Shown here: positions 998-24,201 of the stretch, piece after piece
How positions within the stretch are numbered: the stretch's first letter is position 1
How the letters are laid out: each line of letters starts with the position of its first letter
From: Candidatus Saccharimonadota bacterium
Lineage (GTDB): Archaea > Nanobdellota > Nanobdellia > Pacearchaeales > GW2011-AR1
DNA length: 32,000 nucleotides
Assembly: GCA_041659445.1 (NCBI GenBank)
Contig: JBAZYG010000001.1
Location: 360,001-392,000 of the forward strand
Direction of reading: 5' to 3'
Translations under genes and position numbers: made by a program
The notes under the pieces: model-generated
Told to the model about the DNA's origin: nothing
The model's database searches: none
The model's input: only the letters and a program-made list of their open reading frames with translations

Positions 998-3900
998 ATG
1001 ACAGAAAAACCAATAAGAAAAAAAATAGGAGTAATAAGATTTTCACTCTTGAGTCCAGAAGATATCAAAAATATTTCTGTTGCAAAAGTTGTTACACCTG
1101 AACTTTATGATATTGATGGTTATCCTGTCGACGGTGGATTAATGGATTTGAGATTAGGAGCAATTGACCCAGGAGTAAGATGTAGAACTTGTGGTGGAAG
1201 AATCAAAGAATGTTTAGGACATCCAGGAAGTATTGATTTAGCTAAACCAGTTATTCATTTAAATTATGTTCCTTTAATTGAAATGTGTTTAAGATCTTTT
1301 TGTAAAGACTGTGGAAAATTAATGATTAATGAAAAAGATTTATCAAAATATTCTCCAAGTATGAGAGTAAAGAAAGCAAAAGATGCTAAAAAATGTCCTT
1401 ATTGTCAAGCTGCACAAGAAAAATTCAGATTAGATAAACCAACTAATTTTTACAAAGGAAAATCAAGAATTTTTCCAACAGAAATAAGAGAAATTTTGGT
1501 TAAAATTCCCGACGAGGAATTGAAAAAAGCAGGAGTTAATGCAAGAACATGTCGACCTGAATGGGCAATTTTAACTTCATTATTAGTTCCGCCTGTTACT
1601 GTAAGACCTTCAATTATTTTAGAAACAGGTGAAAGAAGTGAAGATGATTTAACACACAAACTTTCAGATATTATTCGAGCAAATCAAAGACTTTGGGAAA
1701 ATTTGAATGCAGGTGCACCTGAAGTTATTATCGAGGATTTATGGGATTTATTACAATATCATATTACAACTTTTTTTGATAACACAATTACAAGAGTTCC
1801 TCCAGCAAGACATCGTTCTGGACAACCATTAAAAACAATTACAGAAAGAATCAAGGGTAAAGAAGGAAGAATTAGAAAAAATATTGCAGGTAAAAGAGTA
1901 AATTATTCTGGTAGAACAGTTATTAGTCCAGATCCAAATTTAAAAATAAACGAAGTGGGAATTCCTTATGAAATCGCAAGAATTGTAACTGTTTTAGAAA
2001 ATGTGAATGATTTGAATATTAAAAAATTAAAAGACCTTATTAAAAAAGGAAGCGAATATCCTGGGGCAAATTATGTTATAAGACCTGATGGAAAAAAGAA
2101 AAAAATTACAGATGAATTAAAAGATGAAATAATAAATGAAATTGAACCAGGTTATAAAGTAGAAAGACATTTACAAGACGGGGATGTGGTTTTGTTTAAC
2201 AGACACCCTAGCCTTCACAGAGGAAGCTTAATGGCACACTTTGTAAGAGTATTGCCTGGAAGAACATTCAGAATGCATCCTGCTTCATGTACACCCTACA
2301 ACGCAGATTTTGATGGTGATGAGATGAATATTCACTCTCCACAAAATGAAGAAGCACGAGCAGAAGCAAAAATACTTTTAGATGTTAAAAACAATTTAAT
2401 TTCTCCTAAAAATAATACAAACTTGGTTGGTTGTATTGTTGATTCTATTACTGGAAATTATTTAATTGGATTAAAAGAATTTTCAAGAGAAGAAGCAAAT
2501 CAATTACTTTATAATTCTGGAATAGATAGTCCAATTACGAAAAAAAGCATTTCTGGATTAGAATTATTTTCAAAAATCTTACCAAAAGTTAATTTCTCTA
2601 ATGATTCTATTAAAATTAAAGACGGTGAAATAAAAGAAGGAGTTATTGATAAAACTACTTTTGGAGATGAAGACGGAGAATTGATAAAAGTTTTAGACAG
2701 AGAAGTTGGAAGAGATGAAACTTTTGAAACAATTAGAAAAGCATTTAATTTAGGTAAAAATTATTTATCTGGAAGAGGAATTACTGCTTCTGTCGAGGAT
2801 TTTGATTTAGATGAAGAATTAATTAAAGCGGGTGAAAAAATAATTAAAGAAGCTGAAGAAAAAGTTGAAGAAATTATTAAATCATATGAAGATGAAACAT
2901 TAGAATTAATTCCTGGAAAATCAAGAGAAGAATCTCGGGAAATTGCAATTTTAAGAGTATTGAACGAGGTTAGAACAAAAATCGGTCCAATGGTTAAAAA
3001 AGAATTCCCAAGTGAAAATCCAATAAGTTATATGATGAAATCTGGTGGTGGTGGAAATGTTTTGAATATTACTCAGATGGCTTCTTGCGTCGGTCAACAG
3101 GCAATGGGAAATAAAAGAATTGATTTTGGATATACTGGAAGAACACTTCCTTTTTTCAAGAAAGGAGATTTGTCCCCAAGAGCAAGAGGATTTATTAGAA
3201 GTCCATTTATTAAAGGATTAAGACCAGATGAATTTTTCTTTCAGGCAATAACAGGAAGAGATTCACTTATGGATACTGCATTAAGAACTCCTAAATCAGG
3301 TTATTTATATAGAAGATTGGCAAGTGCATTACAAGATATTAGAGTTGAATACGACGAGACAGTAAGAGATTCTGGAAATAATATAATTCAATTTAAATAT
3401 GGTGACGACGGAATTGATGTTTCAAAATTACACAAAAATGAAAAAGTTTGTCCTGGAGAAGCAATTGGATTAATTGCTGCACAAAGTTTCGGTGAAGCTT
3501 CAACACAGATGGTTTTAAGAACATTCCATATGGCAGGTGTTGCTGAAATGCAGGTAACAACAGGTTTACCGAGATTAATTGAAATTTTTGATGCTCGAAA
3601 AAAACCTTCATCACCAAAAATGGAAATTTATCTTAAAAAAGAATACAATAATGAAAAAGATGCTAAAACTTTTGCAGAAAAAATAAAAGAAGTAACATTA
3701 AAAGAAATTTCTTCTGAAATAAATTTAGATTTCTCAAATAAAAAAATTAAAATTTCAGTTGACAAAGAAGCATTAAGAAAAACTCACATGACAATAACTA
3801 AAGTTGTTGAAAAGTTAAATGAATCTGGATTTAAGGTTAAAGAAAGTGCAGATTCTATTTTAATAAATGCATCTGAAATTGGATTTAAAGAAATTTATCA

Positions 3901-4483
3901 ATTAAAAGAAAAACTTAAGAGAACAATTATTTCTGGAATTAAAGATGTTCAACAAATTTTAATTTCAAAGAAAGGAAACGATTTTTTAATAATCACATTA
4001 GGAACAAACTTAAAAGATGTTACAAAATTAAAAGAAGTAAATGCAGAAAAAACAATTTCAAATGATTTGCATGAAGTTGCTGGAATTTTTGGAGTTGAAG
4101 TTGCAAGACAATTAATTATCAACGAAATAAAAGAAGTTATTGATAATCAAGGTTTAGATATTAATGAAAGACACTTAAAACTCGTCGCTGATTCAATGAC
4201 AAATGTTGGAGAAGTTAAAGGGGTTACAAGAATGGGAATTATTGCACAAAAATCTTCTATTTTAGCGAGGGCAACTTTTGAAACACCAATAAAACAATTT
4301 GTAAATGCTATTGTTAAAGGAAGCGAGGACAAATTATCAAGTGTTATTGAAAATATAATCTTGAATCAACCAGTCCCTGTAGGAACAGGTTTGCCTGGAC
4401 TTTTAGTGAATGTGATTGGTCCTTTAAGTAAAAAAGAAAGTGAAAAAAAAGGAGTAAAATTAGATTCTGCAAATAAGTCATAA
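998..4483 (+). CDS. rpoA: DNA-directed RNA polymerase largest subunit, A' and A'' portions fused in one 1161-aa ORF
   Basis: Contains the zinc motif CRTCGGRIKECLGHPG, the catalytic YNADFDGDEMNIH, and the bridge-helix region FFFQAITGRDSLMDTALRTPKSGYLYRRL. The trigger loop GEASTQMVLRTFHMAGV and an A''-type C-terminus (...NQPVPVGTGLPGL) follow in the same frame with no stop. Confidence 0.95.
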   Translation: MTEKPIRKKIGVIRFSLLSPEDIKNISVAKVVTPELYDIDGYPVDGGLMDLRLGAIDPGVRCRTCGGRIKECLGHPGSIDLAKPVIHLNYVPLIEMCLRSFCKDCGKLMINEKDLSKYSPSMRVKKAKDAKKCPYCQAAQEKFRLDKPTNFYKGKSRIFPTEIREILVKIPDEELKKAGVNARTCRPEWAILTSLLVPPVTVRPSIILETGERSEDDLTHKLSDIIRANQRLWENLNAGAPEVIIEDLWDLLQYHITTFFDNTITRVPPARHRSGQPLKTITERIKGKEGRIRKNIAGKRVNYSGRTVISPDPNLKINEVGIPYEIARIVTVLENVNDLNIKKLKDLIKKGSEYPGANYVIRPDGKKKKITDELKDEIINEIEPGYKVERHLQDGDVVLFNRHPSLHRGSLMAHFVRVLPGRTFRMHPASCTPYNADFDGDEMNIHSPQNEEARAEAKILLDVKNNLISPKNNTNLVGCIVDSITGNYLIGLKEFSREEANQLLYNSGIDSPITKKSISGLELFSKILPKVNFSNDSIKIKDGEIKEGVIDKTTFGDEDGELIKVLDREVGRDETFETIRKAFNLGKNYLSGRGITASVEDFDLDEELIKAGEKIIKEAEEKVEEIIKSYEDETLELIPGKSREESREIAILRVLNEVRTKIGPMVKKEFPSENPISYMMKSGGGGNVLNITQMASCVGQQAMGNKRIDFGYTGRTLPFFKKGDLSPRARGFIRSPFIKGLRPDEFFFQAITGRDSLMDTALRTPKSGYLYRRLASALQDIRVEYDETVRDSGNNIIQFKYGDDGIDVSKLHKNEKVCPGEAIGLIAAQSFGEASTQMVLRTFHMAGVAEMQVTTGLPRLIEIFDARKKPSSPKMEIYLKKEYNNEKDAKTFAEKIKEVTLKEISSEINLDFSNKKIKISVDKEALRKTHMTITKVVEKLNESGFKVKESADSILINASEIGFKEIYQLKEKLKRTIISGIKDVQQILISKKGNDFLIITLGTNLKDVTKLKEVNAEKTISNDLHEVAGIFGVEVARQLIINEIKEVIDNQGLDINERHLKLVADSMTNVGEVKGVTRMGIIAQKSSILARATFETPIKQFVNAIVKGSEDKLSSVIENIILNQPVPVGTGLPGLLVNVIGPLSKKESEKKGVKLDSANKS

Positions 4484-4536: not shown

Positions 4537-4953
4537 ATGGTAAATACAATTGATATGCAAGGAATGAGGTACTTGAATTTATTTGAAAAAATTACAAGAG
4601 TTCAAACAAGATATTTTTTTAGATATAATGAAACAATAATGTTTTGTGTTCCTAAATCTTTATTAGGACAAGCATTAGGAAGAAATAATGAAAATCTTAA
4701 AAAAATGAGTGATATCTTAAAAAAAAGAATACGAGTTATTCCAAAACCAAGAGGAATTCAAGATATAAAATTTTTTATCCAGTCTATAATTAACCCTGTA
4801 ACTTTTAAAGATTTGGAAGTTAAAGAAGATGAAATAGTTTTAAATGCAGGTAATGCAAACAAAGCTGCATTAATTGGAAGAAATAAAAGAAGATTTTTGG
4901 AAATGCAAAAAATAATCAAAGATTATTTTGGAAAAGAATTTAAAATTATTTAA
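4537..4953 (+). CDS. nusA: NusA-like KH-domain transcription termination/antitermination factor (archaeal short NusA)
   Basis: 138 aa. N-terminal ...MRYLNLFEKITRVQTRYFF..., then ...LLGQALGRNNENLKKMS... and ...AALIGRNKRRFLEMQKI..., which resemble two KH GxxG-like loops. The position between rpoA and rps12 matches the archaeal cluster. The start could be ATG 4552. Confidence 0.7.
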   Translation: MVNTIDMQGMRYLNLFEKITRVQTRYFFRYNETIMFCVPKSLLGQALGRNNENLKKMSDILKKRIRVIPKPRGIQDIKFFIQSIINPVTFKDLEVKEDEIVLNAGNANKAALIGRNKRRFLEMQKIIKDYFGKEFKII

Positions 4954-5025: not shown

Positions 5026-5448
5026 ATGGGATTAAAAACTGCATTAAAAAAGAAAAAAGACAGAAGAAAATTTCAATGGAAAGATAGAGGATTCAAAGTT
5101 AGAACTCTTAATTTATATGCTAAATCAGATCCTTTAGAAGGAGCTAACCAAGCAAAAGGAATTGTAATTTCTAAATTTCAAAAAGAAGCAAAACAGCCAA
5201 ACTCAGCGATGAGAAAATGTTGCAAGGTTCAATTAACAAAAAATGGTAGAACTGTCGGAGTTTTTATTCCTGGAAATTTAGCACAAAAATTCATCGACGA
5301 GCATGATGAAGTTATGATTGAAAGAATTGGTGGAAAAATGGGAAGATCAAAAGGAGACATTCCTGGAATTAGATACAAAATAATTAAAGTAAATGATCAA
5401 CCTTTGCATAGATTATGGAAAGGCAAAATAGAAAAAGGTAGAAGATAA
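5026..5448 (+). CDS. rps12: 30S ribosomal protein S12 (uS12)
   Basis: [28 protein letters not shown]...[35 protein letters not shown] is the uS12 signature. Confidence 0.95.
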
Positions 5449-5449
5449 A

Positions 5450-5689
5450 ATGGCATTAAAAACTTTAAAAGTTGAATTAGAAGATTACACTGAAAAAATT
5501 GCACCTTATTTATTAAAAATAAAAATTAAAGAACCAGAAATAAGTAATAACTCTATTTGCCATTATACTAAATATGGGGCTATATTAACAGAGCCAAACC
5601 ATGAAGAATTATTCATTCAAATTGTTCTTGATGACAAAAGTCCTGCATTGGGAGAATTAGAAAAATTAATAAAAGGAGAGGAAAATTAA
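5450..5689 (+). CDS. hypothetical small protein (79 aa), paralogue of 5691..5966
   Basis: TAA-A-ATG junction with the rps12 stop (5446-5452). It shares an N-terminal pattern (..K.L....E.Y.EKI.PY) and an identical C-terminus ELEKLIKGEEN with the next ORF. Confidence 0.6.
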   Translation: MALKTLKVELEDYTEKIAPYLLKIKIKEPEISNNSICHYTKYGAILTEPNHEELFIQIVLDDKSPALGELEKLIKGEEN

Positions 5690-5696
5690 AATGACA
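5653..5696 (+). repeat. 44-bp exact direct repeat, copy 1 (agaattagaaaaattaataaaaggagaggaaaattaaaatgaca)
   Basis: Character-by-character identity with 5930-5973. It spans the last 11 codons, the stop, 1 nt, and ATGACA of the next gene. Confidence 0.95.
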
Positions 5697-5966
5697 TTTA
5701 AAGTTTTAGAAATAGCCTATGAAAAATATGTTGAGAAAATTCTTCCTTATATAACAGAAAATTATAATAGAGTTAATAATAAACCTGTAAGAGCATATCT
5801 CCCAGGTGCAACAATGCATAGTCTTAAAAAAGGCGTTATTCAAACAAATTTAGATCTTGAAGATATGAAATCTCCTAAAATGAAAATATATATCAACCCT
5901 TTAATAAGAGATAACAAAAAAATAATTGAAGAATTAGAAAAATTAATAAAAGGAGAGGAAAATTAA
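5691..5966 (+). CDS. hypothetical small protein (91 aa), paralogue of 5450..5689
   Basis: TAA-A-ATG junctions on both sides and a shared C-terminal ELEKLIKGEEN. Confidence 0.6.
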   Translation: MTFKVLEIAYEKYVEKILPYITENYNRVNNKPVRAYLPGATMHSLKKGVIQTNLDLEDMKSPKMKIYINPLIRDNKKIIEELEKLIKGEEN

Positions 5967-5973
5967 AATGACA
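5930..5973 (+). repeat. 44-bp exact direct repeat, copy 2
   Basis: Identical to 5653-5696, at an offset of 277 bp. Confidence 0.95.
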
Positions 5974-6310: not shown

Positions 6311-6913
6311 ATGACGAACTTAAATTTTAAAATATTTGACATGTGGGATATTTCTGAAATTGTTGTTGAAGATTTAGGATTGAAAAATGTAATAAATTTA
6401 CAACCAAAATTAATCTTGAAAAATCAAGGAACAAATGTTGTAAAATTCGGGCAAGCAAAAATTAATGTTGTTGAGAGATTAATAAACAAAATATCCACTG
6501 GCGGACACCGAGGTAAAAAACATAAAATTGAAATTGGACATGCTACTGGAAAATATTCAAAAAATGCAAAAATTGTTATTGAAACTTTAAAAATTATTGA
6601 AAATAGAACTAAAAAAAATCCAGTTCAAGTTTTAGTTAAGGCTATTGAAAATGCTGCGCCAAGAGATGAAGTTACTGTAATTGAGTATGGTGGTGCAAGA
6701 TATCCTCAAGCAGTTGATGTTTCACCATTAAGAAGAATAAATCTTGCATTGAAACATATTGTGCATGGTTCTTCTGATAAGGCATTTGGAAAAAAGAAAA
6801 AACTTTCACAAACTCTTGCTGAAGAAATAATCTTAGCCTCTGAAAATAACGGTGAAAGTTTTTCTGTAAAAAAGAAAAACGAATCTGAAAAACAAGCTGA
6901 CAGTGCACGATAA
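6311..6913 (+). CDS. rps7: 30S ribosomal protein S7 (uS7)
   Basis: ...LVKAIENAAPRDEVTVIEYGGARYPQAVDVSPLRRINLALKHIVHGS... is a typical archaeal uS7 core. The order after rps12 fits. Confidence 0.95.
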   Translation: MTNLNFKIFDMWDISEIVVEDLGLKNVINLQPKLILKNQGTNVVKFGQAKINVVERLINKISTGGHRGKKHKIEIGHATGKYSKNAKIVIETLKIIENRTKKNPVQVLVKAIENAAPRDEVTVIEYGGARYPQAVDVSPLRRINLALKHIVHGSSDKAFGKKKKLSQTLAEEIILASENNGESFSVKKKNESEKQADSAR

Positions 6914-6962
6914 ATATATTCTCTAGAATAGATTTCTTTTTAAACTAAAATTTAATCTTAAA
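6904..6962 (+). repeat. 59-bp perfect direct repeat, copy 1 (last 7 coding nt of rps7 + TAA + whole downstream spacer)
   Basis: tgcacgataaatatattctctagaatagatttctttttaaactaaaatttaatcttaaa is identical to 7774-7832. It contains TTTTTAAA (6937-6944) 29 nt upstream of ATG 6966. Confidence 0.95.
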
Positions 6963-6965
6963 CTT

Positions 6966-7475
6966 ATGGAAATTAGAGAGAATCCAGAATACCTTAAATT
7001 ACAAGAAGAATTTTTTAGAGCAAAAAAAGAATTTAGAAATAGTGAAGCATTTAAAAAATTGGAAATTTCTTATTTTGGGCAACTTAATTCTCAAATTAAA
7101 AAAATTGAAGAAGAAACAAAAAAGAGATTTTTAAATATTCCAGAAATAGGAAACGAAATAACACAAAGCTTAGAAAAATTCAAATTTTTTTATGACCCTT
7201 GTAATATGAGATTTATTGTAAAAGTTAAAGAAATGAAAATTTTGGGAAAGAATTATAATTTAGAATTAATTGCATCAAAATTTCCTATTGAAGAGCAAGA
7301 TTATGATTCTTTAAAAAATGATAAACAATATGCACATGATGTTAAAATGATGGAAAACTATTTATTTGAATTAGAATTGCATCCTTCATCACGTCATTGG
7401 AAGAATGAAAAAATTGAAATGTTTTTGAAAGAAAATCATATTTTTGGTTTTATAGCAGGATATTATAAAGATTAA
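6966..7475 (+). CDS. hypothetical protein (169 aa), inside the repeat-bracketed insert
   Basis: ORF track. The ATG lies 29 nt downstream of a TATA-like TTTTTAAA carried by the repeat. No recognisable domain. Confidence 0.5.
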   Translation: MEIRENPEYLKLQEEFFRAKKEFRNSEAFKKLEISYFGQLNSQIKKIEEETKKRFLNIPEIGNEITQSLEKFKFFYDPCNMRFIVKVKEMKILGKNYNLELIASKFPIEEQDYDSLKNDKQYAHDVKMMENYLFELELHPSSRHWKNEKIEMFLKENHIFGFIAGYYKD

Positions 7476-7783
7476 ATAATAATCAAACTGAACATTATTT
7501 TGCAGAAGAAGCAATATATCTTGGAAGATCAGGTGAAAATCAAACACATAAACTATTTTTTAGAAACCCAATTTTTAAAAAAGATATAAATGGCAATTAT
7601 TGTATTTTAAAAAATGAAAATACGCTTTCAACAATAGTTGAATTTGAGAAATACAATCTTGATAATAGAAATTTTTTAATTTTGAATAACCCAAATGTTT
7701 TAGGATTATCTAACTTAGAAAAAGAACATTTGTTTAAAAAATATCCTGAAAAAGTTGAAGTTCAAACCAATCCTGCACGATAA
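7469..7783 (+). pseudogene. ATG-less 104-codon open frame; possible 3' half of a frameshifted gene continuing 6966..7475
   Basis: Own translation: RLNNNQTEHYFAEEAIYLGRSGENQTHKLFFRNPIFKKDINGNYCILKNENTLSTIVEFEKYNLDNRNFLILNNPNVLGLSNLEKEHLFKKYPEKVEVQTNPAR*. There is no ATG/GTG, and the only TTG is at 7682. The frame opens 7 nt before the stop of 6966..7475, and its last codons and stop lie inside repeat copy 2. Confidence 0.35.
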
Positions 7784-7832
7784 ATATATTCTCTAGAATA
7801 GATTTCTTTTTAAACTAAAATTTAATCTTAAA
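7774..7832 (+). repeat. 59-bp perfect direct repeat, copy 2
   Basis: Identical to 6904-6962, at an offset of 870 bp. TTTTTAAA lies 30 nt upstream of ATG 7837. Confidence 0.95.
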
Positions 7833-7836
7833 TCCA

Positions 7837-8625
7837 ATGGGAAATAATTTTTTTGAATCAAATGAATTAAGAATTTTTTCAAATGCTCGTAAAACTGAAG
7901 GTTTAAAAGACTTGCTCTTTTCTGGAAGAGAATTAATTAGTCCAAGGCAATTAATTTCTATTCAATTAAATTTTAAAAATGAAAATGATTTGATAAAATT
8001 AAGAGAAGAGCAATACGAAACAAAAACAATTAGTTTAAACAAAAGCTGGATAGATTATAAAAGAAACCCGACACATTACTCTTTTGATAAAAAACCAGAA
8101 ATAATTATAATATCCTCCAACCAGATTAAAACTTTGGAAATGTTATGTAACTTCTTTAAGAGTTCTCTATCACAAGATTTTTTAGAAAGATATAATTTAT
8201 TTGAAAAAGAAGCTCTTAAAATTCCAGAAGAAGTTATAAACGAATCTTTAGAAGAATTGGAATATAAGTTAGATAAAAGAATAATTATAAAAAATAAAAT
8301 TTGGAAACAAAAATTCATTGAGTTTATATTAGAGGGAGATTCAAAATTGATTCAAGATTACATAAAATACACAGAAGATATAACTAAAAAGCCATTTTAT
8401 GACAGCCTAAAAATAGAATTCCAAGACAATGCTTTTGAAGCACACCTTTTGAGAATCAATTCTGCATACATTAGCAGATACTGCTTTGATATAAATAAAA
8501 AAAATGCAATAGTTGATCCGTGTTTTGAGTTTGATGATACGAGTAATGGAATTAATTATTTTGGAACAAGATTTATTGGAGTTAGTCAAGAATTCTCTAA
8601 AGAACAAGCTAAAATTTTCGAATGA
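7837..8625 (+). CDS. hypothetical protein (262 aa)
   Basis: ORF track. Long ORF with a leaderless-type promoter geometry supplied by repeat copy 2. No recognisable domain. Confidence 0.55.
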   Translation: MGNNFFESNELRIFSNARKTEGLKDLLFSGRELISPRQLISIQLNFKNENDLIKLREEQYETKTISLNKSWIDYKRNPTHYSFDKKPEIIIISSNQIKTLEMLCNFFKSSLSQDFLERYNLFEKEALKIPEEVINESLEELEYKLDKRIIIKNKIWKQKFIEFILEGDSKLIQDYIKYTEDITKKPFYDSLKIEFQDNAFEAHLLRINSAYISRYCFDINKKNAIVDPCFEFDDTSNGINYFGTRFIGVSQEFSKEQAKIFE

Positions 8626-8671: not shown

Positions 8672-9046
8672 ATGAAAAAAATAGAAATAGAATATGATGA
8701 ATTGTTTAAATTAAAAGAAATTACTGAAGAAGCTAAAAGAGAAATTGAAATTCCTTACCAAGAAAAAAAAGAAGGATTAATAAAAAAAATTTCAAATGAT
8801 TTTGAAAAAAACTTGAAAGAAATAGATATGAACGGTTTTTCAATAAAAGATTATGATGTTTTGATTGATGAATTAAACAAAAACGCACAAGTAATAATTA
8901 AATCAATGAAAAATTCAAAAGGAAAATTAATATTTGACAATGAAATATTAAGAGATATTGGAATTATTTGGTCTCCATTAAAAGAATATTCCGGACATAT
9001 TAGGGAATTTTACGAAAAATATAATATTACATATATCGGATTTTAA
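8672..9046 (+). CDS. hypothetical protein (124 aa)
   Basis: ORF track. TTATAAAT (8644-8651) lies 28 nt upstream of the ATG. Confidence 0.5.
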   Translation: MKKIEIEYDELFKLKEITEEAKREIEIPYQEKKEGLIKKISNDFEKNLKEIDMNGFSIKDYDVLIDELNKNAQVIIKSMKNSKGKLIFDNEILRDIGIIWSPLKEYSGHIREFYEKYNITYIGF

Positions 9047-9111: not shown

Positions 9112-9897
9112 ATGAACAAACAAAGAAATTATTTAAATGAAGGTGCAGAAGAATTTATAGATTCTTTAAAACCAGGAACAACTCCAAGATTTGAAGATGA
9201 AGAGGAATTTTTTGATATTCTTAAAAAAGATTCTGCAGATTACTTAGATGGAAAAATTAACAGGTTGGAAGATCCAGAATACAAAGAAAAAGATCCTTCT
9301 GAAGAATTTTTATATAATTATTACAAAACAACTAAGAAAAAAGTAATTGAAGTTGCTATCCTTTCTATAGATGTTGTAGATTCAACAAAACTCAGTCATG
9401 TTTTAACTCAAGAAAATTATGCTAAAGTGATTTCAGTAATTTTAAGAGAAATATCTCATATTATTTATAATTATAATGGATATGCTTTAAAATATGTTGG
9501 AGATGAGATTATGGCTTATTTTCCAGGTCCAGATATTAATGGAATGCATGATAATGCACTTTTTTGTGCATATGGAATAAAAAAATACATCTTAAAAATT
9601 TTAAACCCATTATTAAATGAAAGAAGTTTTCCAGAAATAAAATTTAGAATTAGTTTGAATTCTGGAAAAGCAATATTAACTGTCGTCGGACATCCAAATT
9701 CTATGCAACATTTTGATTTAATTGGAGAACCTATAAATACTACAAAAAAAATTCAATTAAAATCAGAAATTAATGCAATTCTTCTTGGAGAATCAACAAA
9801 ATCTTTTACTCATCAATTTTGGAATAGCAAAATAGACCCTATTCTTGTTGAAAATGAAAATAACATTAAAGTTTATAGATTAAATATTTTGGTTTGA
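9112..9897 (+). CDS. class III nucleotidyl (adenylate/guanylate-type) cyclase domain protein
   Basis: The C-terminal ~175 aa carry the class III motif order. These are VAILSIDVVDSTKL (first metal Asp), LKYVGDEIMAYF (Lys + second metal Asp), FRISLNSGKAILTVVG, and FDLIGEPINTTKKIQ (GDxxN-like with Asn). The ~85-aa N-terminal extension is acidic. An SD-like AGAGGT lies 5 nt upstream of the ATG. Confidence 0.7.
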   Translation: MNKQRNYLNEGAEEFIDSLKPGTTPRFEDEEEFFDILKKDSADYLDGKINRLEDPEYKEKDPSEEFLYNYYKTTKKKVIEVAILSIDVVDSTKLSHVLTQENYAKVISVILREISHIIYNYNGYALKYVGDEIMAYFPGPDINGMHDNALFCAYGIKKYILKILNPLLNERSFPEIKFRISLNSGKAILTVVGHPNSMQHFDLIGEPINTTKKIQLKSEINAILLGESTKSFTHQFWNSKIDPILVENENNIKVYRLNILV

Positions 9898-9957
9898 AAC
9901 TAAAAATATATACTTAAGTATAGATTTATTTTTAAATATCTTTTATTAAATTAATTA

Positions 9958-10399: not shown

Positions 10400-10483
10400 A
10401 TGGCAGAAAAAGAACGAATAAATTCATTCAAGGTTCTTCCATTAAATACAAAAATACAATGGCAGAAAAAGAATCAAGCTTAG
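10400..10483 (+). promoter_or_regulatory. upstream ORF (27 codons, MAEKERINSFKVLPLNTKIQWQKKNQA*) overlapping the EF-2 start out of frame
   Basis: Its first 15 nt, ATGGCAGAAAAAGAA, are identical to the EF-2 start. The 16-nt exact repeat is 10399-10414 = 10458-10473. The stop TAG at 10481-10483 lies 25 nt inside EF-2. Confidence 0.5.
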
Positions 10484-12657
10484 ACAAAATTAAGAGATTA
10501 ATTTCAAGTCAAGAAAATATAAGAAACGTCGCTACAAGTGCACATATTCACCACGGAAAAACAGCTTTCACAGATAATTTATTAGCTGCTGCTGGAATGA
10601 TGTCTGTAAAAAATGCTGGAGATTTAGAAGGCGGAATGGCAACTTGGCAACATGCTGATGAACAAGAAAGATTAATGACTGTCGACGCTGCAAATGTTTC
10701 TATGGCTCACACATATCAAGGAAAAGAATATTTAATTAATTTAATTGATACACCAGGTCACGTTGATTTTGGTGGAAATGTTACAAGAGCTATGAGAGCA
10801 ATTGATGGAACTTTTGTTTTGGTTTGTGCTGTCGAGGGAATTATGCCTCAAACAGAAAATGTTTTGAAACAAGCATTAAGAGAAAGAGTAAAACCTGTTT
10901 TATTTATTAACAAAGTTGACAGATTAATCAATGAATTGAAAGTAACTCCAGAACAAATGCAAGAAAGATTTTTAAAAATAATTGAAAAATTTAATTTATT
11001 AATTGATCAAATTGCAGAAAAAGAATTTGCTTCAAAATACAAAGTAAATGTTTCTGACGGAAGTGTTGCTTTTGGTTCTGCAAGAGAAAACTGGGCATTA
11101 TCAATTCCATTCATGAAGAAAAAAGGAATTTCATTCAAAGATATTTACAGATTATACGACGGTTCACTTACTAAAGAAGAAATTGATAAATGGGTTTGGG
11201 AAAATGCTCCACTTTATGAGGTTGTTTTAGATATGGCTGTTAAACATCTTCCAAATCCACTTGATGCACAAAAATATCGAATTCCTAAAATTTGGAAAGG
11301 AGATTTAACAGAAGATTTTGGAAAAGGATTACTTAATTGCGATAAAAATGCTGAAGTTGCATTTGTTGTTACAAGAATTGTGATTGAACCTAAATCTGGT
11401 AAAGAAGTTTCAGCAGGAAGACTTTATTCTGGAACAATCCGAAGCGGTATGGAAATTTATGCTAACAACGAGAAGAAAGCTGGAAAAATTCAACAAGTTT
11501 TAGTTTACAACGGAATTAAACCTGAACAATTAGAAAGTGTTCCAGCAGGAAATGTTTTGGCTGTTAGTGGCTTGAATTTAGAAGTTGGAGAAACAATTAC
11601 AGAAAAAGAACAAACTGCTTTTGAAGAAATAAAACACATTTTTCAACCAGTTATTACAAAATCTGTCGAGCCTGTTAAAACAATGGACTTACCAAAATTA
11701 ATTGAAATCTTAAAAAAAGTTTCAAAAGAAGACCCGTCAATAAAAGTTGAAATTAATGAACAAACTGGTGAGAGCTTGATTTCTGGAATGGGAGAATTGC
11801 ATTTAGAAATTATTGAAAATAGAATTAGAACTGAAAAAGGTTTGGAAGTTAAAACATCTGCACCAATTGTAGTTTATAGAGAAACCGTCGGTAAAAACTC
11901 TGGCAAAGGAATTGAAGGAAGAAGTCCAAATAAACATAATAGTTTTTTCATAAGTGTTGAACCATTAGAAGATGAAATTTATAATGCAATCGACGCTGGT
12001 GATGTTCCTGAAGGAAGAGTAAAGAAAAAATCCCAAGCACTTACAGATGCATTTTCAAAATTAGGTTGGAGCGGAGATCAAATAAGGGATATAAGAGATG
12101 TTTACAAAGGAAATTTATTTTTAGATGATACACGAGGAGAAGTCCATATTGGTGAAGTTATTGAAATGGTTTTGGACGCGTTTGAAATGGTTATAGATCA
12201 AGGACCTTTAGCAAGAGAACCATGTACAAAAATGAAAGTTTCTTTAACAGATATTAAACTTCATGAAGATGCAATTCATCGAGGACCTGCACAAGTTTAT
12301 CCTGCAGTTAGAGAAGCAATTAAAGGTGCAATGGCTGAAGCAAACCCAACAATTTTAGAACCACTTCAAAAACATGTTATAGAAATTCCAGATAGTTTTT
12401 TAGGAGCAATAACAAAATTAGTTGGTAGTAAAAGAGGGCAAATTATAAATATTAGTCAAGAAGGTTTAAATGCAGAAGTTGAAGCAAAACTTCCTGTTGC
12501 TGAAATGCTTGGATGGTCAAGTGATTTAAGATCTGCTTCAGAGGGACGTGGAACAAGTTCATTAAAAGATCAATCTTTTGAAAAAATTCCTTTTTCATTA
12601 CAAGCAGATGTTATTAGAAAAATAAGGGACAGAAAAGGTTTATCTGAGAACCAGTAA
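10459..12657 (+). CDS. fusA: translation elongation factor 2 (aEF-2)
   Basis: 732 aa with GTPase motifs AHIHHGKT, DTPGHVDF and NKVDR. The diphthamide-region motif is LHEDAIHRGPAQV, and the domain IV/V sequence is typical of aEF-2. Confidence 0.97.
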   Translation: MAEKESSLDKIKRLISSQENIRNVATSAHIHHGKTAFTDNLLAAAGMMSVKNAGDLEGGMATWQHADEQERLMTVDAANVSMAHTYQGKEYLINLIDTPGHVDFGGNVTRAMRAIDGTFVLVCAVEGIMPQTENVLKQALRERVKPVLFINKVDRLINELKVTPEQMQERFLKIIEKFNLLIDQIAEKEFASKYKVNVSDGSVAFGSARENWALSIPFMKKKGISFKDIYRLYDGSLTKEEIDKWVWENAPLYEVVLDMAVKHLPNPLDAQKYRIPKIWKGDLTEDFGKGLLNCDKNAEVAFVVTRIVIEPKSGKEVSAGRLYSGTIRSGMEIYANNEKKAGKIQQVLVYNGIKPEQLESVPAGNVLAVSGLNLEVGETITEKEQTAFEEIKHIFQPVITKSVEPVKTMDLPKLIEILKKVSKEDPSIKVEINEQTGESLISGMGELHLEIIENRIRTEKGLEVKTSAPIVVYRETVGKNSGKGIEGRSPNKHNSFFISVEPLEDEIYNAIDAGDVPEGRVKKKSQALTDAFSKLGWSGDQIRDIRDVYKGNLFLDDTRGEVHIGEVIEMVLDAFEMVIDQGPLAREPCTKMKVSLTDIKLHEDAIHRGPAQVYPAVREAIKGAMAEANPTILEPLQKHVIEIPDSFLGAITKLVGSKRGQIINISQEGLNAEVEAKLPVAEMLGWSSDLRSASEGRGTSSLKDQSFEKIPFSLQADVIRKIRDRKGLSENQ

Positions 12658-12808
12658 AAAGATAAACCTCGAAAAATTTTAAGAAATTTTTCTATCCAAA
12701 TCCACACAGTGATTTGAATGAAGCTTTATCTGAAAATCAATAAATGTATTAATTCTTAAGAAGTTACAAAACAGAAAGATATTTAAAGGTTATAACTAAA
12801 ATAAAATC

Positions 12809-18356: not shown

Positions 18357-18416
18357 GTCTGAAGAAATGAAGAGGATGATTGGCTTCAGAGAAGAGTTCT
18401 GAAAAATTTAAAAAAA

Positions 18417-18437
18417 ATGACAAACAAAAAAAATTAA
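18417..18437 (+). promoter_or_regulatory. 6-codon mini-ORF MTNKKN* duplicating the 5' end of gene 18659..18880
   Basis: ATGACAAACAAAAAA is identical to 18659-18673. Its TAA (18435-18437) forms a TAA-A-ATG junction with ORF 18439. Confidence 0.45.
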
Positions 18438-18438
18438 A

Positions 18439-18657
18439 ATGGTTGAATATGAATTAATCGCTTTAGGGGGAATTGCATTAGTGGGATTTGGAACAAAGGC
18501 TTATTTAGATATAAAAGAAAAAAAAAGAATAAATAGATTTAATAATTGGGTTAATAATTATTTCATTCCAGAAACAAATAAAATTCGAGAATTAATTAAT
18601 GAATTTAGCGTAGTTTCAAAAGATTTAACAAATAAACTAAAGGATAACAAAATTTAA
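18439..18657 (+). CDS. hypothetical small membrane protein (72 aa)
   Basis: ORF track. N-terminal hydrophobic helix LIALGGIALVGFG. Bracketed by a direct repeat of about 26 nt. Confidence 0.5.
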   Translation: MVEYELIALGGIALVGFGTKAYLDIKEKKRINRFNNWVNNYFIPETNKIRELINEFSVVSKDLTNKLKDNKI

Positions 18658-18658
18658 A

Positions 18659-18880
18659 ATGACAAACAAAAAAGATTTTAATAAATTAAAAAAAATATTA
18701 AGCGAAACACATCCTTTTATGGGTGGGCCATTAAAAATAACAAATTTAGATAGTCGTATAGAAATTTTAAAGTTAGGGGGTATACTCTTGGAACCAAAGA
18801 AAAAAGATTGTTTAATATATATAAAATATTTTCCTGAAGAAGATAGATATGGTTTTTCAGTTTACGAAGAAGAAAAATAA
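18659..18880 (+). CDS. hypothetical small protein (73 aa)
   Basis: ORF track. TAA-A-ATG junction upstream. Confidence 0.5.
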   Translation: MTNKKDFNKLKKILSETHPFMGGPLKITNLDSRIEILKLGGILLEPKKKDCLIYIKYFPEEDRYGFSVYEEEK

Positions 18881-23004: not shown

Positions 23005-24201
23005 ATGGAAATACATCCTCATCCAAAGATATTATTAAAATTACATAGAAGAAGAGCTGATATAGAATTAAGTCCAGAAGAATATCAAAGAGGAAAGGTT
23101 TGGTCAAAAGATAAACAACAACTTCTTATGGATACAATTCTTAAAAAAATGCACATTCCTCCAATTTATTTTCGAGTTTTAGAAAATGGATATTATGAAT
23201 GTGTTGATGGGCAACAAAGATGCACGGCAGTATTTGATTTTTTTGATGATAAGTTTCCCCTCTCAAAAAAATATTCTCCTGAATTTGCGGGGAAATTTTT
23301 TAAAGAATTACCAACAGAAATACAAGATAGATTTTATGATTACGAAATAATGGTTTTTGAAATAGTTAATGCTTCAGATGACGAAACAAAAGAGATGTTT
23401 AAAAGATTACAAAAAGGAATGCCCTTAACTGCTGGAGAAAAACTTAAAGCAGAAACAGGAAATATTAGAAGTTTTATTTTAGAACTAACAAAAACAAAGT
23501 TTTTCTCTGATGCAATTAATGTAAGAGACTATAGAGGTGCTTATTATCAAATGTGTTCTCAAATTTTGGCTCTTGAGATGTTAGGAATGAAAGATGTTAA
23601 ATTCAAGATTTTAGAAGATATGCACACAGAAAATAAAAATTTAGATTTAAATGGAAAAGCACCGACACAAGTAAAAAAAGTAATAAACTTTTTATCTCGT
23701 GCTTTTGAAACTAAAACTCCCGAATTACATACGAGGGCGGGAATAGTTTCATTGTATCTTTTAATTTCTACTTTGATGAAAGAATATTCATTAAAAGATA
23801 AGGAAGATTTAATTAAAAATTTTGTTATTTATTTTCAGGACAAATTAAGAGAAACAGAAGAAAAAGAAAATAATCCAGAATTATTAAAATTTTTGAATGC
23901 AATAAGTCATTCATCTGATGGTGCAAATTCAATAAAAACCAGACACGAAATTTTAATGAATTATTTTTTATTATTTGCTAAAGATTTAGAACCATTAGAT
24001 ACAAATAGAGGTTTTACAGAAATTGAGAGGATAGCAATTTATAGAAAAAACGAGGGTATTTGTCAGGAATGCAAACAAAAAGTAGAATATAATAATTTTC
24101 ACGCAGACCACATAATTCCTCATTCAAGAGGTGGAAAAACAACTCTTGAAAATGGGCAAGTTTTATGTAATAAATGTAATTTATCTAAAGGTGCTAATTA
24201 A
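23005..24201 (+). CDS. DUF262 (ParB-like/GmrSD N-terminal) - HNH endonuclease fusion; putative type IV-like restriction/defence nuclease
   Basis: The N-terminal DUF262 signatures are YQRGKVWSKDKQQLLMDTI and VDGQQRCTAVFDFF. The C-terminal HNH motif is CQECKQKVEYNNFHADHIIPHSRGGKTTLENGQVLCNKCNLSKG. Confidence 0.85.
   Translation: MEIHPHPKILLKLHRRRADIELSPEEYQRGKVWSKDKQQLLMDTILKKMHIPPIYFRVLENGYYECVDGQQRCTAVFDFFDDKFPLSKKYSPEFAGKFFKELPTEIQDRFYDYEIMVFEIVNASDDETKEMFKRLQKGMPLTAGEKLKAETGNIRSFILELTKTKFFSDAINVRDYRGAYYQMCSQILALEMLGMKDVKFKILEDMHTENKNLDLNGKAPTQVKKVINFLSRAFETKTPELHTRAGIVSLYLLISTLMKEYSLKDKEDLIKNFVIYFQDKLRETEEKENNPELLKFLNAISHSSDGANSIKTRHEILMNYFLLFAKDLEPLDTNRGFTEIERIAIYRKNEGICQECKQKVEYNNFHADHIIPHSRGGKTTLENGQVLCNKCNLSKGAN

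Follow-up and report, generated by a model that had tools for sequence, protein, structure and literature searches.

The DNA considered here is a stretch of 32,000 nucleotides, referred to below as the window, which corresponds to positions 360,001 to 392,000 of contig JBAZYG010000001.1 and contains an archaeal rpo-str gene block; according to public protein records, it belongs to a 486-kb contig of a Candidatus Pacearchaeota metagenome-assembled genome (MAG). The window is strongly AT-rich, its GC content being about 23–34% per kb. Within the block, the gene for ribosomal protein S7 (rps7, 6311–6913, 200 aa, matching Pfam Ribosomal_S7 with an E-value of 1.1e-35 and recorded publicly as 30S ribosomal protein S7) is followed by a unique insert of 811 bp (6963–7773) and then by the open reading frame (ORF) o262 (7837–8625), all three on the forward strand. 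The insert is flanked on both sides by a perfect direct repeat of 59 nt, and we will focus on the origin of this repeat and of the gene, here named X, which it brackets.

The repeat, TGCACGATAAATATATTCTCTAGAATAGATTTCTTTTTAAACTAAAATTTAATCTTAAA, is found on the forward strand at 6904–6962 and at 7774–7832. Its two copies are 100% identical and lie 870 nt apart from start to start, with 811 nt between them. The first copy is composed of the last seven coding nucleotides of rps7, the rps7 TAA stop codon (6911–6913) and 49 nt of the 52-nt spacer that follows, and its 3′ edge lies 3 nt before the ATG at 6966. The second copy provides X with its last two and one-third codons and its stop codon, and o262 with its predicted promoter spacer, and its 3′ edge lies 4 nt before the ATG at 7837. 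The left flanks of the two copies are unrelated coding sequences, namely, AAGCTGACAG for the first and AAACCAATCC for the second. A search allowing up to three mismatches retrieved only these two copies in the window, and none was obtained in 100 dinucleotide shuffles. The perfect direct repeat and its anatomy had been described earlier from the sequence alone, in what we call the sequence-only reading, and they stand as described, with none expected by chance. With regard to secondary structure, the 59-mer folds no better than its shuffled versions (z = +0.9 to +1.3), and no known RNA family or tRNA was found near the insertion site.

The insert is, judging from its reading frames and composition, one frameshifted gene of about 272 codons. 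The 5′ part of X is the ORF of 169 aa as called (P0001, 6966–7475), and the 3′ part (7469–7783) comprises 104 sense codons, has no start codon and ends in ...PAR* at the TAA of 7781–7783, both parts being on the forward strand. The start of the 3′ open frame coincides exactly with the close of the 169-aa frame, as the frame-2 stop is at 7466–7468 and the frame-0 stop at 7473–7475, so that a −1 shift is needed in the forward-strand interval 7469–7472, where a 1-nt deletion would explain it. This 3′ frame was stop-free in 0 out of 20,000 composition shuffles. Furthermore, both halves carry the coding signature of the native genes, GC1 > GC2 > GC3, with values of 0.36/0.20/0.14 for the 5′ part and 0.37/0.24/0.10 for the 3′ part (GC3 of 0.10–0.14). 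X harbours no stop codon of its own; its reading frame continues into the second repeat copy, where it is closed by the duplicated rps7 stop. The sequence-only reading had placed a 169-aa orphan gene in the insert. The orphan status holds, but instead of a 169-aa gene followed by some 300 nt, the insert contains the single longer gene. Since it carries a frameshift, X looks like a decaying passenger.

No homologue of X was found among 5.8 billion proteins, the sole database match of the 169-aa ORF being itself, and no relative was detected in IMG/VR, phage records or plasmid records. X matches no PHROGs or PADLOC family and no Pfam domain above the curated cut-off, the weak match to DUF4852 reaching 19.5 bits versus a cut-off of 22.8. 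At the DNA and six-frame levels (blastn and tblastx), comparison of the insert with the rest of the window and with 14 related loci returned low-complexity noise only, and a second copy of the insert is present neither in the window nor in any related locus compared. The insert is devoid of terminal inverted repeats, the best match between its ends (10/20) being reached by 1652 of 2000 shuffles. Structure models of the 169-aa ORF and of o262 are poor (pLDDT of 48 and 51, respectively), too low for a fold search.

The 59-nt repeat is real, and not an assembly artefact. An independent MEGAHIT contig from ENA (L001), assembled with a final k of 141, which is greater than the repeat length, shows the same repeat–insert–repeat structure, and with such a k, reads must span the repeat plus both flanks. 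In the Logan contigs (k = 31), one sequence (L002) ends at 6933, 30 nt (k−1) inside the first copy, and two others (L017 and L018) start at 7803, 30 nt (k−1) inside the second. Breaks at these points are what a true repeat imposes on a de Bruijn graph, which has to branch there, and they come from two read sets, SRR6484324 and SRR18595301. An artefact, of which the sequence-only reading had warned, would consist of two strain haplotypes wrongly joined, by collapse or chimerism, over the 59-mer that they share. The mosaic or chimeric appearance of L001 at this locus, with its switch from about 80% to 100% identity at 5193/5194, could be cited for it, as could the lack of a Logan contig with the whole 169-aa ORF. 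However, the repeat is shorter than the k of the MEGAHIT contig, with which the 486-kb MAG contig agrees, the junction between the 3′ end of X and the repeat must exist in the reads for any path, and Logan contigs break k−1 inside the repeat in two read sets. The k = 141 contig, the second assembly and the Logan breakpoints are taken to exclude such a join, which we consider extremely improbable.

Several features of these assemblies deserve mention in their own right. Up to position 5193, which falls inside rps12, L001 shares about 77–80% identity with the window, most differences within rps12 being at third codon positions; from 5194 to the end of L001, 3.66 kb further on, the identity is 100%. 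Either the accessory region was exchanged recently between divergent lineages, or one of the two assemblies is chimeric. No Logan contig carries the whole 169-aa ORF, although contigs of the same runs carry rps7 and o262, and no 31-mer of this region (6966–7475) recurs elsewhere in the window; polymorphism or a lower coverage of the insert-bearing haplotype could account for the missing ORF. Across the locus, L001, L002 and L016–L019 are all 100% identical to the window and represent the same clone, so they provide no divergence information for dating.

The repeat also contains predicted expression signals. Its spacer part carries a 31-nt promoter-class motif, ATATATTCTCTAGAATAGATTTCTTTTTAAA (6914–6944, forward strand), with a TATA-like box, TTTTTAAA, at the 3′ end. 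This box is present at 6937–6944 and 7807–7814, 29 nt before the ATG at 6966 and 30 nt before the ATG at 7837, as the sequence-only reading had it. For the genes of the window that have a real spacer, a TATA-like octamer starting 27–30 nt before the ATG is normal, 13 of 23 upstream hits, from at least 10 genes, lying at this distance. Each repeat copy would provide one gene with a canonical predicted promoter at the canonical distance; the placement is supported statistically, and promoter activity is presumed from it. A third and diverged copy of the motif, ATATATACTTAAGTATAGATTTATTTTTAAA, is located at 9906–9936 on the forward strand, upstream of o111, and one related locus (L005) carries the motif at the equivalent position. 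Diverged versions also recur in relatives, after rps7 or after the cyclase gene, each time with an ATG about 21–24 nt downstream. The location of the X ATG at the canonical distance from the TATA-like box suggests that the spacer followed by X was already a working promoter–gene unit.

X and o262, the two genes preceded by the repeat, are not related. The best BLASTP match between them has an E-value of 4.5, alignment of the o262 family profile with X using hhalign gives a probability of 0.3%, and no similarity exists at the DNA level. Tandem gene duplication was rejected on these grounds, in line with the sequence-only reading, which had disfavoured it because it saw no paralogy between the flanked genes. 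A different scenario would keep the repeat copies old, in an ancestral order of rps7, promoter, X, promoter and o262, or in an ancient tandem duplication, and would have the two promoters recently homogenised by gene conversion. The motif recurs in diverged form at 9906–9936 and in relatives, so partial homology of the kind needed is possible, and two small genes upstream of rps7, o79 and o91, show diverged bodies with an identical 3′ junction. Nevertheless, X is no paralogue of o262, the conversion tract would need to start in unrelated coding sequence and to overwrite the native end of X, and X is absent from the relative that has o262 next to rps7 (see below), which together make this scenario very unlikely.

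o262 belongs to a small family, with five homologues among 1.84 billion representatives. In a JGI contig (L011) whose rps7 is 72% identical to that of the window, rps7 is followed by 62 nt and then by an o262 homologue of 275 aa, and the insert is absent. The spacer of this contig carries ATATATTTTATAGAATATATTTGTTTTTAAA, which differs from the motif of the 59-mer by four mismatches in 31 nt, the best agreement among all loci. The sequence-only reading had predicted such an empty site, in which rps7 is directly followed by o262, and this relative presents it. Since the o262 homologue comes directly after rps7 there, an older state lacking X is indicated. Judged from these sequences, the comparison shows rps7, spacer and o262 as the probable older arrangement, in which o262 is likely to have stood next to rps7 on the downstream side, and the 870 bp formed by X and one junction copy as the addition. 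The upstream context is available from L011 only, given that two other contigs with o262 homologues (L010 and L012) start inside the gene. In these two contigs (positions 1–130 of L010 and 1–185 of L012), the o262 homologue matches only from residue 62, and is preceded by GC-richer, non-coding-looking sequence with inverted repeats, in which both contigs start. In addition, P0127 is a 95-aa variant of o262 diverging after about residue 65, and the o262 homologue seems to have been interrupted at about residues 62–65 in the lineage of L010, L012 and P0127.

Taken together, the data show an insertion that is recent, duplicative, limited to a single gene and located at a hotspot. It is considered recent because the two copies exhibit no difference over 59 nt. 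Of these 59 nt, 49 are AT-rich spacer, largely unalignable between most relatives. Most tellingly, as this spacer diverges fast between relatives and yet the copies are identical, the second copy was most likely made in place, and a foreign element is not expected to carry a perfect copy of the spacer of this particular strain. The origin that we favour, to which we would give about an even chance, is an integrase-independent duplicative recombination, in which the second junction copy was made from the resident one. No integrase, transposase, recombinase, Cas1 or reverse transcriptase was found in the window, where about 36 ORFs were scanned.

The event added 870 bp, namely, X and a second junction copy in which the final 10 nt of rps7 are followed by 49 nt of spacer, the source of this copy probably being the same or a nearly identical genome rather than a foreign element. 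In its most likely form, it would have combined homologous pairing across the 59-nt junction with a single illegitimate join at 7773|7774, the pairing taking place either by unequal exchange or by a single crossover of the Campbell type. The rps7 end, the spacer and X may have been provided by a strain variant, a sister chromosome or a fragment that had become circular. The main alternative form would be the capture of a fragment at a staggered break whose ends were then filled in. The fact that X has lost its native end suggests a breakpoint inside X. As an outcome, rps7 has kept its end and remained intact after the event, X is located 29 nt from one TATA copy and o262 30 nt from the other. 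The survival of the event is easily explained, because duplicating the junction spares the expression signals of downstream genes.

Among known processes, the closest in behaviour is insertion by a Campbell-type or unequal crossover at a hotspot flanked by core genes. Such exchanges yield a repeat–insert–repeat structure with identical repeats of resident sequence, need no dedicated enzyme and are reversible via the repeats. In the present case, however, no donor molecule or variant allele was observed, and 59 bp is a short homology.

Several points weigh against the proposed origin. The relative showing the empty site is fairly distant, with its rps7 identity of 72%, and closer relatives do not have o262, so that ancestral adjacency requires losses; the likeness of its spacer could, in addition, partly reflect a shared promoter class rather than orthology. 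No donor for X was found, nor a strain variant with rps7, spacer and X lacking o262, and X itself has no homologue. The proposal still requires an earlier event that set X precisely 3 nt behind the spacer, and the problem is thereby partly pushed back. All assemblies of the locus represent one clone (100% identity), and a population view of empty alleles, circles or intermediates is lacking. Finally, the scan for integrases and further repeat copies covered 32 kb of a 486-kb contig, and an integrase could act in trans.

The last point leads to the interpretation put forward by the sequence-only reading, which saw in the repeats an att-like footprint. Proviruses and plasmids encoding tyrosine recombinases target the 3′ ends of genes, leaving attL and attR, as in archaeal gene capture. 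Accordingly worded for this locus, the repeats would be the relic of site-specific integration by a small element or cassette carrying X, with an attB over the rps7 3′ end and a recombinase located elsewhere or lost. The direct repeats do overlap and restore the 3′ end of the target gene, which is left intact with the insert between them, an empty site occurs in a relative, and a length of 59 bp falls within the size range of archaeal att cores. Moreover, the rps7 3′ end is duplicated again in relatives, with three copies in L007 and two in L014, and in the latter the live and displaced rps7 ends encode the same peptide with different codons. Casposons, for their part, are known to target the 3′-distal region of aEF-2 (PMC4046053), which may be counted on the same side.

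However, the insert and the 32 kb contain no integrase, and X has no viral or plasmid relative. Lacking a stop of its own, X also falls short of a self-contained cassette, and the 811 bp of the insert amount to a single gene, truncated and frameshifted. A copy resembling attP was likewise missing, the 27-nt core of the repeat having no exact match in IMG/VR, although an exact-match search is a weak test. The 49 nt of fast-diverging spacer would make a poor conserved and reusable target. In addition, the left boundaries of the rps7-end copies differ, being at −10 nt in the window and at −24 nt in L007 and L014, and the duplications of these two relatives belong to a structured hairpin element of another kind. 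Of the features defining an integrative element, the repeats and the unoccupied site are thus present at this locus, while an integrase was not found in the 32 kb scanned, nor an attP, with the reservation just made for the latter. What stands of the att-like footprint is its direct-repeat geometry and its empty site. The integrase/att origin finds no support, in view of the missing recombinase, the missing attP-like copy and the poor quality of the site, and we regard it as unlikely. Further copies of the 59-mer, to which the sequence-only reading had pointed as a possible lead, did not turn up either, since the 27-nt core has no exact match in GTDB representative genomes, as in IMG/VR, and the window holds two copies only.

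A second alternative dispenses with a specific site and treats the repeat as a 59-nt target-site duplication. Nicks 59 nt apart, transposase-like or spontaneous in AT-rich DNA, would have been followed by the joining of an 811-bp fragment and the filling of the overhangs. A perfect direct repeat immediately around a unique insert is what such a process leaves, both junctions resulting from one event, and other short duplications of gene termini are present in the operon (the 15-nt start of EF-2, duplicated 59 nt apart, and the EF-2 3′ end, found again 63 nt downstream). Known transposase and casposase target duplications measure 2–15 bp, and 59 nt is far outside this range. Besides, neither terminal inverted repeats nor a transposase were found, and chance must have made the captured fragment start 3 nt ahead of the X ATG, given it the right orientation and brought this ATG 29 nt from the TATA-like box. 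We therefore view a target-site duplication as doubtful, on a par with the att relic.

Other classes of elements were considered and rejected. A DNA transposon, insertion sequence (IS) or miniature inverted-repeat transposable element (MITE) does not fit an insert that is single-copy, lacks terminal inverted repeats and is surrounded by a 59-nt duplication instead of a short one of fixed length. Casposon and Tn7-style insertions (at aEF-2 and glmS; PMC4046053) resemble the present case in that they overlap the 3′ end of an essential gene, here a translation gene, or lie just downstream of it, and leave this gene undamaged, but no Cas1, PolB, transposase or terminal inverted repeats are found here, and the duplication is 59 nt versus 5–15 bp. 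An integron cassette was ruled out for want of an attC hairpin, core sites and IntI, and with only two repeat copies in 32 kb; read by eye, the 59-mer contains no GTTRRRY core site on either strand. The attC and IntI features of archaeal integrons and CALINs have been described (PMC9668308), and the locus shares with their cassettes the single orphan genes in one orientation and a repeated element of about 60 nt between them. In contrast to integron cassettes, which are promoterless, the 59-nt repeat carries a predicted promoter and the end of a host gene. Lastly, the template/variable repeat (TR/VR) pair of a diversity-generating retroelement was rejected, the copies being 100% identical and the window containing no reverse transcriptase.

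The insert lies in a variable part of an otherwise conserved gene block. The latter comprises, in order, the fused RpoA gene (998–4483), a KH/NusA-like protein gene (4537–4953), rps12 (5026–5448), three small orphan genes (o79, o91 and o113), rps7, the insert region, o262, o124, the nucleotide cyclase gene o261 (9112–9897), o111 and the elongation factor 2 (EF-2) gene (10459–12657). The number of genes between rps7 and EF-2 varies from none in L014 to one in L003 and L009, two in L005, three in L007, and five to six in the window. The two genes of L005 are a cyclase gene and a gene coding for 108 aa, whereas those of L007 code for an Mrr-type nuclease and two orphans. The cyclase, with 62% identity, is the sole slot gene common to the window and L005. 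The slot between rps12 and rps7, as well as other operon junctions, varies likewise. By its gene content, the rps7–EF-2 interval qualifies as a hotspot flanked by core genes, its cargo differing in every relative examined.

This slot carries genes that, judging from profile matches, are of the defence type. o261 matches Pycsar PycC models (E-value of 8.5e-17), as does its orthologue in L005 (8682–9467, 3.7e-15), although the genes adjoining the cyclase include no recognisable Pycsar effector. The Mrr-type nuclease of L007 (9033–9608) matches PADLOC PDC-S02 and ZorD (2e-18). In the window, the sole nuclease or defence-type gene outside the rps7–EF-2 slot codes for a GmrSD-type restriction endonuclease with a C-terminal HNH domain (23005–24201; Pfam GmrSD_N, E-value of 1e-19, and HNH, 4e-13). 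Accessory and defence hotspots flanked by core genes have been described in bacteria, some of them with no identifiable mode of mobilisation (PMC10121019). The slot studied here is similar in its fixed position among core genes and its lineage-specific cargo, such as the Pycsar-like cyclase and the Mrr-like nuclease, but differs in being located inside a core transcription–translation operon of a DPANN archaeon and in receiving single genes with their own predicted promoters.

The 59-mer is not the only duplicated gene boundary of this region. When 121 kb, comprising the window and relatives, were screened for direct repeats that are exact, at least 40 nt long and no more than 4 kb apart, three were retrieved, namely, the 59-mer, a 44-nt repeat at o79/o91 and a 54-nt repeat of L007 starting inside the rps7 3′ end. 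The 44-nt repeat is exact and occurs on the forward strand at 5653–5696, at the 3′ end of o79, and at 5930–5973, at the 3′ end of o91. It comprises the last 38 nt of o79 or o91, a 1-nt spacer and the ATGAC of the next gene, and contains a GGAGAGG ribosome-binding-like site. Its copies bracket a gene unit of 277 nt (o91) about 1 kb upstream of the 59-nt repeat. The o79 and o91 products are alike only in their N-terminal 21 aa and C-terminal 12 aa, with unrelated middles. Logan contig L002 begins within the second 44-nt copy, 30 nt short of its end. This second perfect junction repeat was counted in favour of integrase-independent duplicative recombination.

Shorter or less perfect duplications were noticed as well. 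The first 15 nt of EF-2, ATGGCAGAAAAAGAA, are found at 10400–10414 and 10459–10473, a distance of 59 nt that leaves 44 unrelated nt in the middle; the upstream copy lies in another frame, and in relatives the EF-2 ATG comes directly after its promoter. Two small genes located after EF-1alpha start with a near-identical stretch of 27 nt, AAAATGACAAACAAAAAA... (89% identity, 18414–18440 and 18656–18682), 242 nt apart.

In other respects, an element of about 63 nt with three hairpins was observed after the stop codon of EF-2 in the window (12658–12722) and of rps7 in L007, in two copies, and in L014; the 54-nt repeat of L007 and a related case in L014 belong to it. The regions concerned are 12658–12743 in the window, 8595–8756 in L007 and 6604–6691 in L014. 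The 5′ arm of hairpin 1 is formed by the last codons of the host gene, and its loop contains the stop codon; yet rps7 and EF-2 have completely different sequences at this place, and MAFFT alignment left this hairpin out of register between the two contexts. On the 3′ side of the element lies a pseudo-copy of the last six to eight codons of the host gene. The L014 pseudo-copy is identical at 28 of 28 positions to the third copy of L007, whereas the live L014 rps7 end uses other codons. The element folds with z-scores of −3.6 (window) and −2.8 (L007), has no Rfam match, and may represent a 3′-flank RNA element or the footprint of another process. The element shows that duplicated gene ends are common at these junctions, but it leaves the unstructured 59-mer unexplained. 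Furthermore, in L007 the segment separating the rps7-end repeats from the Mrr-type gene includes a GC-rich sequence of about 150 nt (8830–8990) with long-range complementary segments and a terminal hairpin followed by a T-run. It resembles a structured RNA, with no Rfam match at an E-value of 1 or less save one chance-level miRNA hit.

As regards its significance, the locus can be seen as a clean though rather ordinary mark left by the gain of a gene at a variable site. It is at the same time a snapshot, dated by the identity of the two copies, of an orphan gene entering a highly conserved operon of a reduced DPANN genome without breaking it, where junction duplication lets the essential upstream gene keep its end and leaves the newcomer and the old neighbour each with a full predicted promoter. 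The 59-nt repeat, the 44-nt o79/o91 repeat and the copies of the rps7 and EF-2 ends in the window and its relatives are three cases that fit a broader process. We can tentatively propose, although we hold it to be improbable, that Pacearchaeota gain genes at rpo-str junctions by recurrent, integrase-free junction duplication, the operon functioning as an expression-ready capture site for orphan and defence-type genes. Each incoming gene may then be bracketed by a fresh upstream gene end together with a promoter or a ribosome-binding site, in the manner of a promoter-carrying analogue of the integron. If recurrent, junction duplication would represent a simple route of gene capture with expression built in; if not, the locus would be one more insertion scar. 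Along with the variable content of the slot in relatives, the locus suggests that the turnover of accessory genes in these genomes may be driven by duplication of gene boundaries and not by classical mobile elements.

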